From a virus: a DNA stretch of 64,000 nucleotides. Under the pieces are notes generated by a model, which saw only the letters and a list, made by a program, of their open reading frames with translations, was not told the DNA's origin and ran no database searches. Location of the stretch: positions 32,001-96,000 of IMG/VR virus record IMGVR_UViG_3300036832_001373; one strand, 5' to 3'. Position 1 is the first letter of the stretch. The number at the start of each line of letters is the position of its first letter. Position numbers and translations under genes: made by a program. Of the stretch, positions 2,867 through 61,131 are shown piece by piece.

Positions 2867-3544
2867 ATGGAGAAGTTTCTGGACAAACCTATAAACCCTA
2901 TACCTCTTTCCGAAGACGATGAAAGGGAGACCTTTCCTCTAGCAAGAGCATATGTTCCAAGAGATCCTACTAAAAGATATGTCTCGATATGGCAAGAGGA
3001 ATTGGAGCATGAGCTCCTTATTCCTGACGCTCCCTGGCTAGCTCCAAAACCTTACTTTGTTGCCAAGCAAAGAGCGACAAGCTATTACCGACAATTCACA
3101 AGAAGGGAAATGTGGTTAAGCGACGACAACGAAGTGGTCGAGTGGCAAGAGGTTAAGCCAGACGCTTTTCTCTTGGGAGAAAGTAACTTTCTGGACGCGA
3201 ACCTCAGTCCTGAGAGTCGGGTTTTGTTCAACGATTTGGTCAGGCAGTTGCTCTTTAACTTCGTAAAAGAGTTTGAAGAGGAACACAAGGCGGTCCAGCG
3301 TGGTCTTGCTTTGAAGTTTGTCTCAAGGTTGGTAAGAATGAGCCGTTTGGATGAGATCCTAGACGAAGATCTTAAAGCTAGAATTCAAGAAAGTCTCGGA
3401 GACGCCAACCCTTTGAAATTTAAAGACCTAGCCACGTTGGCTGGATTCAAGTCCAGGGACGGAGGCCGCTACTCGAACGATATAGGTTGGCAGTTCCAAA
3501 GAATATCCGAGGAATTAAGAGTCTTTACAAAAACCATGGTTTAA
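2867..3544 (+). CDS. Hypothetical protein (possible DNA-binding/origin-associated)
   Basis: 225 aa, GGAGA RBS; C-terminal FKDLATLAGF helix could be HTH-like. Confidence 0.7.
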   Translation: MEKFLDKPINPIPLSEDDERETFPLARAYVPRDPTKRYVSIWQEELEHELLIPDAPWLAPKPYFVAKQRATSYYRQFTRREMWLSDDNEVVEWQEVKPDAFLLGESNFLDANLSPESRVLFNDLVRQLLFNFVKEFEEEHKAVQRGLALKFVSRLVRMSRLDEILDEDLKARIQESLGDANPLKFKDLATLAGFKSRDGGRYSNDIGWQFQRISEELRVFTKTMV

Positions 3545-3614
3545 TTTAGAGACTAGAGTGTAACAATGAAAAGACTATGATCTAATAGAGGAAGGCAACC
3601 TCTTTGGGGAGAGT

Positions 3615-3776
3615 ATGGCTAACACAGATAAGTTTGAAAGGATCAAGAAATCAAACGATGAAGGGTTGGAATGGTACGTGGTTAAGAAAAACGGTATAGA
3701 AATGTACCATTGCCAAACTATAGCTCAAGCAGACTCGTGGATTGCTTTGAGCAAGAATAGATCCAAGGAAGGATAG
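3615..3776 (+). CDS. Small hypothetical protein (53 aa, not in ORF track)
   Basis: GGGGAGAG RBS, MANTDKFERIKK...SKEG*. Confidence 0.6.
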   Translation: MANTDKFERIKKSNDEGLEWYVVKKNGIEMYHCQTIAQADSWIALSKNRSKEG

Positions 3777-3827
3777 GATAGTTGATATGTATCAAAAGGG
3801 AAGTAAACCAGCAGAGGAGAGACTAAA

Positions 3828-4787
3828 ATGTTAAGTCCAGAAGTGTTGACTCGAGATCAGCTTATGGAAAAAGCTGCTGCTCGTGATAGAGATTTTAGGT
3901 CGATGAGTCTTAACTCGGTAAGAATCCAAGACTCTTCTAGAGGAAGAGGTATCGTCTTAAACGAAGAAACTATAGCGATTGACGATGGATTTAAGGAAGT
4001 GGTAGAGATGCTAGGAGCCCCGGTGGGTTTTGTTAAGAAAACCCATTTAGGCTTAGCCGACCAAATCGTGAAAAGACTTATAGAGGATGTTCCAGACAAG
4101 GAGATTCTCCTTCGTGGAGGAAGAATTCTAGGTCACCGTCAAAAAGGAGGAGGTCACGTTCCAGCAGTAGAAGTTTGTGAGAAAGTTCTAAGAACAGTTC
4201 CAGATATCGAAAAGGTTATGTTCTTCGATCTAGGGAAAAGTTTTGACGCACAGGTTCTGTGTCATAGTCTGGAGGTCAAGCCAAAAGTCAACGACATAGT
4301 TCGTGGAGGAGTTAGACTGTTATACTCTGAGTATATGCTTAGAGAGCCAGAGATCTCCACATTTAGCGAACGATTGGTTTGTTTGAACGGTATGACTCAC
4401 CGAGAAAATCGTGTGACTTTCAAGTTTGAGACTCACCAAAAGTTCATGGACGAACTAGAGTCCTCAGTCAACTTTTGCCTAAGTTACTTTAATACCTCGG
4501 TAGGAGAGAACCTCAAGAAAGCTGTGGAGATGAAGGCTCCAGGGGATCAGATTATACGTCAAGCGTTCTCTAGAAACCGTATAAACCCTCGGTACTATGA
4601 TGATGTACTTCTGGCTCATGCTTCCGAAAACGACGGAAGTGCTTATGGTGTTCTTCAAGCTTTCACCAGAGCAGCCAACGCACAAGACAACTATGAGAGA
4701 CGTTCTAAGCTCCAAGAGGTTGGAGGAATTGAATTGCTTGAGGTAGCTAGAGCACACTGTCCCACATGTTACTCCGCATTAAATTAG
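3828..4787 (+). CDS. DUF932-like phage protein
   Basis: GAGGAGA RBS; RLVCLNGM motif and SAYGVLQAFTRAA helix typical of this family; C-terminal CPTC. Confidence 0.6.
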   Translation: MLSPEVLTRDQLMEKAAARDRDFRSMSLNSVRIQDSSRGRGIVLNEETIAIDDGFKEVVEMLGAPVGFVKKTHLGLADQIVKRLIEDVPDKEILLRGGRILGHRQKGGGHVPAVEVCEKVLRTVPDIEKVMFFDLGKSFDAQVLCHSLEVKPKVNDIVRGGVRLLYSEYMLREPEISTFSERLVCLNGMTHRENRVTFKFETHQKFMDELESSVNFCLSYFNTSVGENLKKAVEMKAPGDQIIRQAFSRNRINPRYYDDVLLAHASENDGSAYGVLQAFTRAANAQDNYERRSKLQEVGGIELLEVARAHCPTCYSALN

Positions 4788-4800
4788 GTATGGAGGAGCA

Positions 4801-5451
4801 ATGTACTCAGGACATCCTTACTATGGTTACTTTGCTAACATGATAAAGAGAGGTAATAGGTTAGGACGTGACTTCTCTCTAGGAGAAGAGGACTTTAATA
4901 AGTGGCTAGGGATTATAGGACTCATCCCTGAAGATATGTCACGACCATCGGTCGGAAGAGTAGATCATTCCAAAGGGTACGTTTTCGACCAAGAGAAAGG
5001 TAGGTGGAACTTTAGATGGCAAGAACTTAGTGATAATCACAGCGAAGGAGGAACTAGAGGAGCCTTTACAGCGTTTTCATCCGAACAGAGAACAGCATAC
5101 GGGAAACTTGGAGGTAAACGTGCTGCAGAGTTAGGAAGATCCGGATTTCAGAATTTCACTCCTGAACAACGATCAGAGTATGGTAGAGAGTCTTGGAAAG
5201 ATAAAACTAAAGAAGAAATTATGGAGAGAACACGGTTCTTTAGATCGGAGGAACACAAACAGTGCGTGGATAGGTGGAACTCTGATCCAACGAATCCATC
5301 GAAGACAGAAGTGCTACAAGCAGCTTCGGCTGCTAGCTTAAATCATGTCTCAAAGAGGATCTACGTTTGCAGAGTATGTGGAAAAGAATGCTCAAGTCCC
5401 TTGGGTAAGTACAATCATAAGAAGATTCATCCAAGTGGATTTGATGAGTAA
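4801..5451 (+). CDS. Putative homing-endonuclease-like protein (His-Me finger-like N-terminus, C2H2 finger C-terminus)
   Basis: SVGRVDHSKGY...NFRW...N resembles SIDRIDxxKGY HNH-type cores; CRVC...HKKIH. Confidence 0.55.
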   Translation: MYSGHPYYGYFANMIKRGNRLGRDFSLGEEDFNKWLGIIGLIPEDMSRPSVGRVDHSKGYVFDQEKGRWNFRWQELSDNHSEGGTRGAFTAFSSEQRTAYGKLGGKRAAELGRSGFQNFTPEQRSEYGRESWKDKTKEEIMERTRFFRSEEHKQCVDRWNSDPTNPSKTEVLQAASAASLNHVSKRIYVCRVCGKECSSPLGKYNHKKIHPSGFDE

Positions 5452-5464
5452 GAACTGATTGAGT

Positions 5465-5875
5465 TAGTCTAGCATCTGCCACCCAAACCGCAAATGCTAG
5501 ACTGGGGGAGTGAGTGGTTTATCTCCATTTTCCGCTCACTCCTCCGACCATAGCCCAGCATGCAGGTGGCTTATAATAACAGCGTGCAGTCTGGTAGGAG
5601 ACGGGTTTTGCTATGTTCCCGGACTTTCTCTGGATGCGACACCTGAATTGTGGAGTCCCGATGGTCGGGCAACTCTGTGGACGTGGTGGATCCTGTCCAG
5701 ATTCTTCGGACCAGACAATTTATTAGGAAATTTAGTTTCTGTTCCCTGACGTGGTCAAGCTCGGCTACCAGACTTAATAGCCAGGCTCTCTAGACCCGGC
5801 CACGAGCAGGCGGGACGACTCTGGGTTGTTCTCCTATCTCTCCGAGTCGTCCCGAGATCTCTTTATCAAAGGAGT
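5465..5875 (+). ncRNA. Large structured non-coding RNA candidate (unclassified)
   Basis: GC-rich intergenic region with consecutive stems 5466-5503, 5504-5545 (14 bp, 2 G-U), 5588-5597/5765-5774 and 5811-5854. Confidence 0.65.
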
Positions 5876-5882
5876 TAGAACA

Positions 5883-6164
5883 ATGGAGTCTCTCTTAGGC
5901 TATATGATTAGTTTCGAAACCTGGAAGAAGTATATCAGACTTTCAACGGGTAGTGATGATATGAAATCTAGAGTCATTTCTTTCGTTGTACTACTATTTA
6001 ATAAACCAGAATTTCTTGATTCTCTTAAACTTGGTTTGTCATTCGGTGAGTTTATAGAGACTCTTTCGTATGAAGAACTAATTGACTTTGAGAAAACTAT
6101 TCTACTTGCTCGTAACTTGAATAATGTTCCAATAGTCCAAATTGGAAGTGAAAAGATTAACTAG
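5883..6164 (+). CDS. Hypothetical protein
   Basis: AAGGAG RBS supports ATG 5883 rather than 5826. Confidence 0.6.
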   Translation: MESLLGYMISFETWKKYIRLSTGSDDMKSRVISFVVLLFNKPEFLDSLKLGLSFGEFIETLSYEELIDFEKTILLARNLNNVPIVQIGSEKIN

Positions 6165-6183
6165 CTAGAAAGGTTGACAAGCT

Positions 6184-6342
6184 ATGACAGCAGCTAACTA
6201 CACAGTTAAAGAAGTAGTGCGTATCGCTAGAAAGTATCTTAGCGAAGACAGTCTTAGAAAGATGGTTGAAGAACTTCTTAGAGTTGAAGGGAATACTTCT
6301 TTCAAGCAAACTATCAAAATGCTACACAGGGAGCTGATGTAA
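6184..6342 (+). CDS. Small hypothetical protein (52 aa)
   Basis: MTAANYTVKEVVRIARKYLS...; fills the operon. Confidence 0.55.
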   Translation: MTAANYTVKEVVRIARKYLSEDSLRKMVEELLRVEGNTSFKQTIKMLHRELM

Positions 6343-6344
6343 AG

Positions 6345-6512
6345 ATGCAGAAGAGGGCTATTATAGGAGCCTGCGATTGTTGCGATGAACCATACGTTGT
6401 ACTTCGCAGAACTATAGCATATGGAATCGAGACTTACGCATGTGCAGTATGTCATGGGCACGACAAGGATGAGTTTGATTGTGATCTCGAAGAACTGGAG
6501 GAAATCGTATGA
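6345..6512 (+). CDS. Small zinc-ribbon protein (55 aa)
   Basis: CDCC...CAVC pairs, acidic tail, ATGA coupling to next gene. Confidence 0.55.
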   Translation: MQKRAIIGACDCCDEPYVVLRRTIAYGIETYACAVCHGHDKDEFDCDLEELEEIV

Positions 6513-6844
6513 GTAGTGATACTGATCACAGTATAGAATGGAAACCATACGATGAAATATGTACAGAGATTTACTTTGACGGAGCAATGGTTGGATTTAT
6601 GATGAAACGTCCAGGTTACTGTGACCGAGGTCGCTGGACAATTGATATCCAGATATATAAAATGTTTAATGGATTTATAGTACCTTTGATTGATGACGCC
6701 GACAAATTTCCTCGGTACTACATGAGAAAAGAAGTAGCTATATCAGAAACAGAAGAGTTTCTTAGATGGAGATTTTCGAAGGAGATGGGTCATGATCAAA
6801 AGACCAGTTTATCCAATCAACCAGAAGTCTTGGTTTCCGATTAG
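6509..6844 (+). CDS. Hypothetical phage protein
   Basis: GGAGG RBS; KRPGYCDRGRW...DDADKFPRYY. Confidence 0.65.
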   Translation: MSSDTDHSIEWKPYDEICTEIYFDGAMVGFMMKRPGYCDRGRWTIDIQIYKMFNGFIVPLIDDADKFPRYYMRKEVAISETEEFLRWRFSKEMGHDQKTSLSNQPEVLVSD

Positions 6845-6959
6845 AGTTAAGTATGAAGACGAGGAGAAGGCTTGTATGGTCTCTTCCCCCTACCATCTTA
6901 GAGATGGAGTAGGGTTCAAAGTTCTAGCTGTAAGAGTTGTATCAGAAGATAGGAGCTAA
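6792..6959 (+). CDS. Small hypothetical protein (55 aa)
   Basis: GGAG RBS, MIKRPVYPINQK...; fills gap. Confidence 0.45.
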   Translation: MIKRPVYPINQKSWFPIRVKYEDEEKACMVSSPYHLRDGVGFKVLAVRVVSEDRS

Positions 6960-6960
6960 C

Positions 6961-7242
6961 TTGACCGAATCTTGGTATGCTATTCAACATAAAAAGACAG
7001 GTCAATTCTTAGGAATAACTGTTTCAGGAAACGGAGAAGCAGAGTTCTGCAACAGTTACAATTGCTATTTTACTGATTGCGAACCTCCGCATTTATTTGA
7101 GAAAAGAACGTATGCTGAGGAAGCTTTAACTGAAGATACTAAATGGTATAATACCGGATTGTGTTGTCCAGGTTGGAGGGACCCTTTCGATAGAGAAGAC
7201 TACAAAGTAGTTAAGATATCTCTTAAGGAGGAAAAGAGTTGA
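6961..7242 (+). CDS. Hypothetical Cys-containing protein
   Basis: AGGAG RBS before TTG 6961. Confidence 0.55.
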   Translation: MTESWYAIQHKKTGQFLGITVSGNGEAEFCNSYNCYFTDCEPPHLFEKRTYAEEALTEDTKWYNTGLCCPGWRDPFDREDYKVVKISLKEEKS

Positions 7243-58442: not shown

Positions 58443-61131
58443 TTAACCAGTCGTAGCTCCGAGTAGATTGAACCCAGCCAACGCCTGAATCACGGAGAAA
58501 TTAACTCCTGTGGCTGTGATAATATTCTGCAGCTGAATAAATTCAGCCGCTTTCTCTGGTTGTAGATAAATATCAACGTTTAGTTGGTTCATATCTATAA
58601 CTTGTGGAGGATTGTTGGTCTCATCGCAAACCGTCTTATAGGCATAGAGACCATTCTGAGCCTGAACAAGAGATAGATATTGGTTTAGAGCGTTTGTTAT
58701 ATCTAGACGAGTATATTGGTTGTTTAGTTCGAATAGCTTGAACTTCAAGAACTGTTTTGCAGCACGTTCAATCGTTATGATACAACGACGAACGTTGATT
58801 CTATCAAGGGCAGATGGCTTGGACTGTTGAGTCTTTTGACCAAAGACTACAATACCATCTCCAGGAGAGAAGATAAGAGGATTGATATTCACAGGATTTT
58901 GATAGAGAGCCTCTATATCTCCGATTGCATCGTAACGAACCGTGACATCTACTGGAGGCAGAGTTTGTGATCTTATAACGCCACGATTATAACCAGCAGG
59001 AGCATACCAAGGATATGCCTGGTTATCAGTTCTAGCCATCACCTGAGCAATAAATCCAGACGGAGGAATTGGCATACCAGCTATATCATTATAGCTATCG
59101 TATACCTTAACCCAAGGTGAGTAGAGAGCACAGAAGCTAGACTCGATATTCTGATAGTTTAGCCTCCAGTCAGAAGCCATAGTGATAGGAGTTATCTCAA
59201 CTTTGTTGTAGGGTATGTCGAAGACAGCGAAACAGTCTCGACGTCTCTCAACAAGAGCTTGCATAGATTCTTGGACAGACCAGTCGATATCAGAGACGTA
59301 TCCACCGTTGATAAGTATATTCATATCAACGTATGCAGCATTTCCATACAACTGCCAACCCTGGATAATGTCTCCAGAAGTAACAGGCTGACCATCACTA
59401 CCCATAGTTAGAGGAACTTTGGTTGTGGTAAATGCTGGCATCACATTCTGATCTAGATCAACGTTATCGAATACTCTAATAAAGTTAGAGTATCCGTTGA
59501 TCGCAGTCTCTAGATACATGTTATTTCCATAACCATCTTTCTTATTCTTAATTCTGGAGACATCCCAGACTTCTCTGGTAATGTCAATCCCATTTTGATT
59601 TTCATATACAACTAGTTGGAACCCTTCCGGATCCCAGAGAGTCTGGATTATTGATATCTTGAGATTGTTAGCCCAGACACCTGGATTTTCAGCATAGATC
59701 ATAAAGGCGGTATTACCGGAGTCTGAGCCGATAAAGTTAGCCGAAATTGTTATTCCAGTTCCTGGAGCATTGACGAATGTGATCTCCAAAGCTCCATCAT
59801 CAGCTACTAGAGTACCTGTCTGAATTCCTTGACCAGAGACGTTACCTAAACTATCTACCGTAACTGGGATCGTAGTGGTTCCAACTGCGATCGATAGAAG
59901 TTGAACGATAGGTGCTGGAGCTAGAGTAGCAGCAAACGTTGGAGTTAAGTTATCACCAGTACCAATTTCCTGGTTGACTGAAACTGGGAAGTACTCTGGA
60001 GTTTCAGTCGGAACTCCCTGAGCGATTGGAGTAGACGGATTAGCTGACGTGAAGGTAGCAGCAATCTGAGCTCCACTTGCAGGAGGAGTATCGAAAGTAA
60101 CGTGAATAACACCAGACACGTAGTCGATATCACCAGAGGTAATGCCAGTTCCAACGATAGAACCACCTCCGTCTGCTGTAGTATATCTGGCCGTGATAAC
60201 GTTATTTAGAGCAGGAGCAGCAGAGAAAGTAACTGTTAGTGCCCCAGTAACTTTATTTATAGTACCAGAAACTAGTCCAACACCAGTAACGTTACCTAGA
60301 CTATCAACCGTACAATCTATCTGAGTAGCTCCATTCATAATAGTTAACAAAGTTCCTATAGGAGCAGGAGCCAAATGAGAAGTAAAAGTAGTTGTAGTAC
60401 CATCGCCAGTACCTATCTGGCTCTGATTGTAAACAGATACGTCGATCTGAGTAGCACCTACGTGAATTGCATTTAGAGATTGGAGAGGTACTGGACCTAA
60501 GATACCTGCAAAGATTCTAAAACTTGCATTACCAACTGCGAATACTTGAGTTACGATTTGAGATATACCTGTTTTATTTATGATGACACCAGCATATGCG
60601 CCATTGACACACACTCTAGTGAAGTATAACTGAGTCATCTCTTCTAGAGCACACAAACCACAGTACATAGCGTAACCGTAGTTTACATTAGGTGCTCCAT
60701 TGATAGTTACTAACGCTTGAGTATTAGTAAATAATACTCTTTTGTTGACTGGTCCTCTCGCAGCTTGACCTACGATAGCTCCTACCGAGGTAGCTTGATT
60801 TTGGACTATTGCTGATAGATCTACGTCTCGTGCGTATACCGTTTATGTTCGCTAGAGTTCGCTACTCTCTAACCGTTCCTTTGAGGAACCGCTCATGGTT
60901 ACCCATGAGACCAGACTATATCATCAACCACTAGGGTTGTGTGGTGCTTCGGACCGCTTGGCCCTACTCCCTTACGGGATAGTCGTTGAACCTTCCTACC
61001 AAAGATGGTAGGCTCGGCTTCGGATTGTCCTGACTCGCTTATCCAGGAGTTCCCCGAAATTCTCCACATTGTCATTAGCGAATTGCTTCGCTACGGGGCT
61101 AATAGTAACCCGGGGCGGTATAGACGGCCAT
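58443..61131 (-). CDS. Tail sheath protein, spliced: join(61131..61108, 60839..58443), ~806 aa
   Basis: Spliced N-terminus MAVYTAPG|VYARDVDLS; WYAPAGYNRG, SALDRINVRR, FELN, AEFI. Confidence 0.93.
60840..61107 (-). ncRNA. ORF-less group I intron (268 nt, subgroup IA-like) in sheath gene
   Basis: Exon ends in U, intron ends in G; P1 CGGGU/GCCC; P7 GACUA/UAGUC within UCAACGACUA and GAUAUAGUCU; splicing restores frame. Confidence 0.93.

Follow-up and report, generated by a model that had tools for sequence, protein, structure and literature searches.

The segment between positions 5466 and 5861 is a conserved, modular, non-coding folded RNA composed of distinct modules. The DNA analysed here (the window, 64,000 nucleotides) spans positions 32001-96000 of an IMG/VR phage record that is 147.5 kb long and has a GC content of 41%. 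We consider it very likely that the segment specifies a functional structured RNA on the + strand, modular in construction and unrelated to the nuclease-like gene preceding it. Judging from alignments of its copies, the unit at the 3' end of the segment is a new motif whose base pairing and core sequence are both strongly selected. The first-pass annotation had described the region as one RNA of about 400 nt. Comparison with related phages gives a different picture, namely a string of modules, each of which has been independently gained, lost or repeated. The coordinates of the features are collected in the table.

Features of the RNA region, its modules and its neighbouring genes (positions refer to the window, except for the genes of contig L146)
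Feature	Position	Strand	Remarks
319-aa gene	3828-4787	+	phrog_1362, function unknown
Orphan 216-aa gene	4801-5451	+	weak C-terminal C2H2-like zinc finger; outside the RNA element
H1 hairpin	5466-5503	+	10-bp stem 5466-5475/5494-5503, 18-nt loop
H2 hairpin	5504-5545	+	14-bp purine/pyrimidine stem 5504-5517/5532-5545, two G-U pairs
Middle domain	5546-5737	+	variable multibranch domain; GAGU-CCCGA/UCGGG-ACUC, UCUGGAU/GUCCAGA option (MFE folds)
3' unit	5738-5861	+	two hairpins; most conserved part of the region
P1 CCUG/CAGG	5745-5748/5807-5810	+	
1x2 internal loop	A5749 vs A5805-G5806	+	
P2 CGUGG/CCACG	5750-5756/5798-5804	+	variable apical hairpin
P3 CGGG.../...CCCG	5811-5821/5844-5854	+	11-bp stem of the first-pass annotation
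Tail AGA	5855-5857	+	
Linker	5862-5882	+	AAGGAG ribosome-binding site of the next gene
93-aa ORF	5883-6164	+	downstream of the unit
NusG-NGN and Prim-Pol/DUF3987 genes of contig L146	551-1042, 264-362	-	upstream of the unit

The GC content is 0.50-0.55 across positions 5500-5900, compared with about 0.41 genome-wide. The + strand of 5455-5885 folds with an MFE of -163 kcal/mol and a z of -4.27, which none of 100 shuffled sequences matched; the corresponding z of the - strand is -3.2. The GC profile and the folding score bear out the initial description of a GC-rich island built of stems, and all of the stems it quoted (H1, H2, the 5588/5774 arms and the 11-bp stem) are present at their positions. 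The ORFs that cross the gap are short and unconvincing. A 79-aa ORF at 5510-5749 has no Pfam or PHROG family and is unlike the gene-caller ORF over the equivalent region of contig L002, so that no protein-like conservation is seen for this frame. The shuffle test and the absence of a coding signal together support the earlier view of a non-coding structured RNA.

The region belongs to a + strand polycistronic operon that begins near 2867, after terminator-like hairpins at 2761-2822. These hairpins face each other on both strands and probably represent the operon boundary. No sigma-70-like site was found on the + strand between 4700 and 6300, and no terminator-like site needing read-through was found downstream in the operon. 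The 319-aa gene spans to the end of the phrog_1362 profile, and its homologues in relatives have the same endpoint. On the 3' side, the AAGGAG of the linker is able to pair with the adjacent upstream CUCUUU, and the MFE fold ends, on its 3' side, in this hairpin of six pairs. The 93-aa ORF has no Pfam or PHROG match and is unlike the genes found downstream of units in every relative. Outside the window, at G000:C1:12500-13060, there is a 560-nt array (GC 0.54) in which AGCGAGCCG and GAGACCCG alternate. Its words lie about 20 nt apart in some 25 repeats, directly upstream of an ORF start, and it looks like an iteron or other protein-binding array, or an unusual repeat RNA.

No DNA similarity was detected to 50,697 phage records, no close relatives were found in IMG/VR through the 216-aa, 93-aa and 319-aa proteins, and the region has no paralogues within the same genome. 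Homologues of the 319-aa protein with 61-77% identity are present in metagenome contigs, and five related contigs reached through this protein (L002, L003, L004, L141 and L142) were compared. The 313-aa protein encoded by L002 is identical to that of L003. In each of the five contigs, the 319-aa gene is directly followed by a gap of about 250-690 nt that is non-coding and folds strongly. The DNA of this gap can be aligned to that of the relatives in short patches only, as suits RNA structure but not protein. None of the five contigs has the 216-aa gene at this locus, and it is thus a lineage-specific insertion between the stop codon of the 319-aa gene and H1.

The gap sits in a hyperplastic zone, with the conserved 319-aa gene on one side and variable small genes on the other. 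Gene insertions in this zone are represented by the 216-aa gene in the window and by a 54-aa ORF in L141. The latter (L141 2126-2290) has a strong ribosome-binding site and lies between H2 and the unit; the same contig carries about 290 nt of additional hairpins 3' of the unit (2420-2706), including a second H2-like loop. In two more distant relatives (35-41% identity), genes of the 7-deazaguanine pathway occupy the place of the RNA region after the 319-aa gene. L143 has DUF3307, PTPS/QueD and QueC genes at this location (3042-4650), and L144 has QueF (6512-6973).

The RNA had been suggested to be a partner of the protein encoded immediately upstream, which was described as HNH-like. This 216-aa protein has no Pfam or PHROG family match, and the Pfam and PDB searches give a weak C2H2 match only (zf-C2H2, E=0.07). 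A single distant homologue was found among 5.8 billion proteins, and with a pLDDT of 42 the AlphaFold model is of no use. Its HNH character is therefore an unconfirmed resemblance by eye. A partner or guide function of the RNA for this protein appears extremely improbable. The two are adjacent in one genome, but all five relatives retain RNA modules while having no such gene, and the unit also occurs in bacterial DNA that lacks it.

Hairpins H1 and H2 are both found in the window, L002/L003, L004 and L141. At the place of H1, L002, L004 and L141 carry a hairpin with a different stem sequence. In the H2 stems, most positions have changed while pairing was retained across four lineages. The H2 loop UUUAUCUCCAUUUU is conserved in L002/L003 and L004, and the loop word UUUAUCUCC(A/G)UUU, common to three lineages, is seen again in the second L141 hairpin (2598-2636). 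H1 and H2 probably terminate or protect the upstream message. A scan of viral contigs with the H2-loop pattern returned 116 matches, none of which lies in a hairpin, and these were dismissed as chance. Covariation was thus found on comparison with the relatives: H1, H2 and the 3' unit all keep their pairing through sequence change.

The middle domain is fast-changing and cannot be aligned to the relatives. Its place is taken by a tRNA-like module in L002/L003 and by two long hairpins in L004, and it is empty in L142. The tRNA-like fold (L002 7075-7190, L003 2287-2400) has a T-loop GGGUUCAAUUCCC, an acceptor-like GGAUG/CAUCC pairing and a 16-bp closing stem; it is called neither by ARAGORN nor by the Rfam tRNA model. 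A true tRNA-Met is located about 600-700 nt past this fold in L002/L003, about 250-270 nt past the last unit. Within the window, the long-range arms AGTCTGGTAG (5588-5597) and CTACCAGACT (5765-5774) are perfectly complementary and had been proposed to close a multibranch domain. The comparison gives no support to this stem. Its 3' arm belongs to the apical loop, a variable part of the conserved 3' unit, and in the relatives the middle domain is closed by unrelated stems. In the MFE fold, moreover, 5588-5594 pairs with CCAGAC near 5711-5717, about 50 nt upstream of 5765.

Of all the modules, the 3' unit is the most conserved. P1-P2 and P3 abut without a linker and are co-directional with the operon genes, and the unit has a length of about 110 nt (80-125 nt across copies). 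The covariance model built for it, R1, scores the unit of the window at 90.8 bits (E 2e-19). In a MAFFT alignment of 11 units, 97.5% of the cells are paired and 8 pairs are doubly changed, which was equalled by none of 500 shuffles; in a control with slid partners, the paired fraction was 30-43%. RNAalifold recovered P1-P3 unaided from the same alignment. A model-based alignment of 15 matches, including the likely false L140, gave a similar result; over both alignments, 97% of the cells are paired, with 8-9 double-change pairs. P3, the 11-bp stem, is kept in the related phages via changed sequences.

The alignment contains many U-G cells, three of them consecutive in the first L002 unit. Because these cells would be A-C on the other strand, they indicate an RNA on the + strand. 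The earlier impression that the G-U pairs favour this strand is hence supported by covariation in the relatives. Two copies, the first units of L142 and L004, lack the internal loop and form a continuous helix. The core sequence is nearly invariant between phages of 41% GC and alphaproteobacteria-type DNA of 65-75% GC, and it is strongly conserved across phages whose flanking gene is just 61-77% identical. Pairing between the 5' flank and the 3' tail and loop-loop kissing, inspected by eye in the aligned copies, are not conserved. A sigma-70 or Caulobacter-type promoter inside the unit was also considered, and was rejected on the grounds that the -10 falls in the variable loop.

The number of units differs among the phages: L002 has three, L003 and L142 have two each, and the window and L141 have a single one. 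L004 has one confirmed copy, cut by the contig end, and a diverged copy recognized by eye. The first unit of L003 is a hybrid of the first and second units of L002, which fits unequal recombination. In the entire 147.5-kb phage genome, R1 has one match, on the + strand. A pattern scan of 241 million metagenome records located the unit in GC-rich (64-75%) soil contigs, and a scan of 185,579 species (one genome each) yielded two exact-pattern matches and located the unit in an alphaproteobacterial MAG. This MAG (G001) has two units, and a low-sensitivity R1 search of 151 genomes of its order gave matches in two of them. In viral contigs, the strict pattern had no match and a looser one had two, of which R1 confirms L146 only. 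Pattern matches in L121, L122, L125, L127, L129 and L135 are devoid of P3 and tail and were discarded as false, and the R1 match in L140, which sits in an apparent coding sequence, is likely false.

The position of the unit relative to genes and signals follows several arrangements. In the window, L002/L003, L142 and L130, a start codon comes 20-40 nt after the end of the last unit (25 nt in the window). The downstream genes differ from one locus to the next and are unrelated, in phages and bacteria alike. A promoter-like TTCAAG-17-TATGAT in L130/L133 places the unit at the 5' extremity of the leader. A terminator is found 3' of the unit in L124/L131, L126 and L128, and about 10 nt 5' of it in L124/L131, L126, L128, L134 and L146. 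In L124/L131 the unit is located between convergent genes, with terminators flanking both sides. Around the phage units, no conserved promoter or terminator was found.

Two of these neighbourhoods deserve description. The soil contig L124 carries a ProQ/FinO-family gene (664-1152, - strand) convergent to the unit. The viral contig L146, which is GC-rich, has a terminator and the unit directly downstream of two genes, one for NusG-NGN (Pfam 5e-12) and one for Prim-Pol/DUF3987, an arrangement that could be an antitermination module. The bacterial neighbours also include an IS3 element, a group II intron and a truncated ligase gene, in addition to the ProQ/FinO gene. The unit is accordingly found in a mobile-element setting without a constant protein partner.

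Rfam 15, used at the gathering threshold and at E<=10, gave nothing relevant in the window, in L002-L004 or in six bacterial loci, so that the lack of a known family noted at the outset holds for this library. The best stray match was c4-a1b1 on the opposite strand, with 17 bits against a cut-off of 46.7. No published description of the unit motif was found, without a targeted literature search. The initial remark that the RNA was not recognizable as a tRNA, tmRNA, RNase P or intron is likewise borne out by ARAGORN and Rfam. ARAGORN reported no tRNA or tmRNA in the window, L001 or L136, and the group I intron model RF00028 had no match at E<=10 in 5300-6000. As a positive control, the same Rfam library detects a true group I intron at 60892-61117 on the - strand, a full-length match to RF00028 with 79.4 bits and an E of 1.6e-18.

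Several specific candidates were tried and rejected. RNase P was considered for a CR-I-like GAAAGUCCGGG on the - strand at about 5620-5639; no RNase P model matched at E<=10. The - strand there reads GAGAAAGUCCGGGAACAUAG, 11 nt that match the CR-I core of RNase P exactly, but an exact 20-mer scan of viral contigs was empty, and the likeness is put down to chance. GOLLD, ROOL, HEARO/omega RNA and other large RNAs had no Rfam 15 match in the window or L002-L004. HDV-like, hammerhead, pistol, twister and domain V-like folds were considered by hand; the helices fail to map, and Rfam lends these folds no support. In type III toxin-antitoxin systems, tandem RNA repeats of about 36 nt precede a gene for a ToxN/AbiQ-type endoribonuclease. 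The present unit measures about 110 nt, and the 93-aa protein encoded downstream is without a Pfam or PHROG match.

We propose that the unit may be cis-acting, affecting its own transcript. The core persists despite large differences in GC content and no encoded protein accompanies the unit, so the motif is probably read by a conserved host machine. The most likely candidate for this machine would be RNA polymerase, whose binding would let transcription enter the variable genes. A ribonuclease or the ribosome would be the next candidate, affecting the stability or translation of the downstream cistron. The location of the unit inside or at the start of transcripts, near start codons or terminators, favours a cis-acting leader, a reading that we adopt tentatively from the sequence comparison. 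The promoter-like site of L130/L133, the proximity to start codons, the co-directionality with the flanking genes, the terminator 3' of the unit in L124, L126 and L128 and the NusG-NGN gene ahead of it in L146 are consistent with it. The convergent-gene setting of L124/L131, on the other hand, resembles that of a free-standing sRNA or a remnant. Also against a leader are the approximately 290 nt of further structure between the unit and the next gene in L141, the first units of L142 and L004 without an internal loop, and the phage itself, from which NusG, ProQ, Ro/TROVE and RtcB genes are absent. Antitermination specifically of the put type, suggested by analogy, appears unlikely; R1 has no match in HK022, and no terminator-like site needing read-through was found further down the operon.

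It is possible, if doubtful, that the unit represents a new functional RNA class common to alphaproteobacterial mobile elements and their phages. In this case, the consensus CCUG-A-CGUGG...CCACG-CG-CAGG-CGGG...CCCG-AGA might engage a core host machine, or it might be a new ribozyme or aptamer; we regard these options, taken jointly, with the same reserve.

Other explanations should be weighed against a cis-acting leader. A decayed gene or chance GC-rich filler without function is highly improbable for the region as a whole. The unconserved middle domain would agree with it, and decay or filler is possible for parts of 5546-5737, but it is contradicted for H1, H2 and the unit, which covary. The near-invariance of the unit core across very different GC contents and the folding z of -4.3 likewise speak against it. 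The units could instead be stable sRNAs acting in trans, cut from the operon transcript or, in bacteria, made from their own promoter. Variable loops on a conserved scaffold would then pair with host or phage mRNAs, or the RNA would titrate a host RNA-binding protein. Alphaproteobacteria are known to have tandem sRNA families, and the tandem copies of the phages do combine a conserved scaffold with variable loops. Those bacterial copies that have a promoter-like site, or terminators on their flanks, resemble sRNA genes; the H2 loop and several of the P3 loops have a CU-rich, anti-Shine-Dalgarno-like sequence; and a ProQ/FinO gene adjoins the unit in L124. However, the phage units have no conserved bracketing promoter or terminator, their loops share no common seed, and the ProQ neighbour occurs in one locus family only, and the phage has no ProQ gene. 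We regard sRNAs of this kind as somewhat unlikely.

The unit might also be a selfish or recombinogenic hairpin cassette (REP/BIME, IS200/605-derived or PeSL-like), possibly folding as ssDNA, that spreads or persists by mediating indels in the hyperplastic zone while the RNA itself is inactive. The varying copy number in near-identical phages (three in L002 and two in L003, with a hybrid unit), the gene insertions in the zone (the 216-aa gene and the 54-aa ORF of L141) and the placement of the bacterial copies, which mostly come right after terminators and have an IS3 element, a truncated ligase gene or a group II intron close by, could all be explained in this way. A cassette is nonetheless quite unlikely. 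There is one copy in a 147-kb phage genome, and the phage site is always syntenic; the MAG G001 holds two copies, and there are two exact matches among 185,579 species (one genome each). Runs of U-G wobbles suit RNA over DNA hairpins, and purifying selection acts strongly on the core. A riboswitch aptamer, in tandem in some copies, that senses a small molecule and controls the downstream gene via termination or occlusion of the ribosome-binding site is very unlikely. Its junction core would be conserved and its distal stems would vary in length, as they do here; tandem copies are possible for such an element, and a terminator or ribosome-binding site is close behind the unit. The downstream genes, however, are mutually unrelated at every phage and bacterial locus, few unpaired nucleotides are conserved, the internal loop is replaced by a continuous helix in some copies, and no Rfam riboswitch matches.

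A leader acting in cis, our preferred reading, can be set against several known systems. Structured regulatory RNA in phage operons is already known; the motif of the unit is absent from Rfam 15. GOLLD, ROOL and the stable RNAs C and D of T4 are large or stable phage RNAs encoded beside tRNA genes. The region resembles them in being a long, ornate non-coding phage RNA whose relatives include a tRNA-like fold and a tRNA-Met, but it has no Rfam match and is made of shuffled modules instead of one conserved fold. The cuckoo/alpha-r14 group consists of tandem alphaproteobacterial sRNAs with the loop word CCUCCUCCC. Tandem hairpins, pyrimidine-rich loops and the alphaproteobacterial setting are common to both; in contrast, the unit has no Rfam match, its loop is not CCUCCUCCC, and its conservation resides in stem bases. 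REP/BIME elements and IS200/605-derived palindromes are imperfect palindromes located after genes or terminators, clustered and variable in copy number. The unit differs in its very low copy number, where REP/BIME or PATE mobile palindromes are present in many copies per genome, and in its synteny across diverged phages, and its wobble pairs indicate RNA.

PeSL are composite terminator/promoter cassettes of T4-like phages (PMC2839356, PMC4122927). Like them, the unit is a short conserved motif in a hyperplastic region with variable small ORFs, indels and a hybrid junction (L003). PeSL, however, are present in many dispersed copies with an early promoter, whereas the unit occupies one locus per genome. 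Moreover, no promoter-like site is found on the + strand of window positions 4700-6300, and selection on the unit acts on base pairing in two long hairpins. This locus illustrates gene gain and loss beside such elements in the hyperplastic zone of a phage replication module.

The putL and putR elements of HK022 are two adjacent stem-loops of about 70 nt that act in cis as RNA polymerase-binding antiterminators (PMC9378689). They lie in phage early operons, occur in more than one copy per phage and need no phage protein (PMC9378689). Since put works without a phage protein, its sequence is constrained by the host machine. The unit shares with put the two adjacent stem-loops, the location in a phage operon and the copy number above one in some phages. 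Put is thus the closest working model for a leader of this kind. The unit, however, exceeds the roughly 70 nt of put with its 80-125 nt, is found 2.9 kb downstream of the operon start, away from the promoter, and belongs to another host clade; R1 found nothing at E<=10 in the 40.7-kb HK022 genome. Protein-independent RNA elements that reprogram transcription or the fate of the message have been described in very few phages, with HK022 put as the textbook case. With its covariation, its variable tandem copies and no Rfam entry, the unit is a well-defined candidate for a new RNA that binds a host machine. A covariance model is ready for use, and natural variants are available with one to three units and with copies devoid of the internal loop. 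If the unit does form a new class, it could, for example, extend put-like modifiers of RNA polymerase beyond the enterobacteria, and its tandem multiplication by phages would tune the expression of newly acquired genes.
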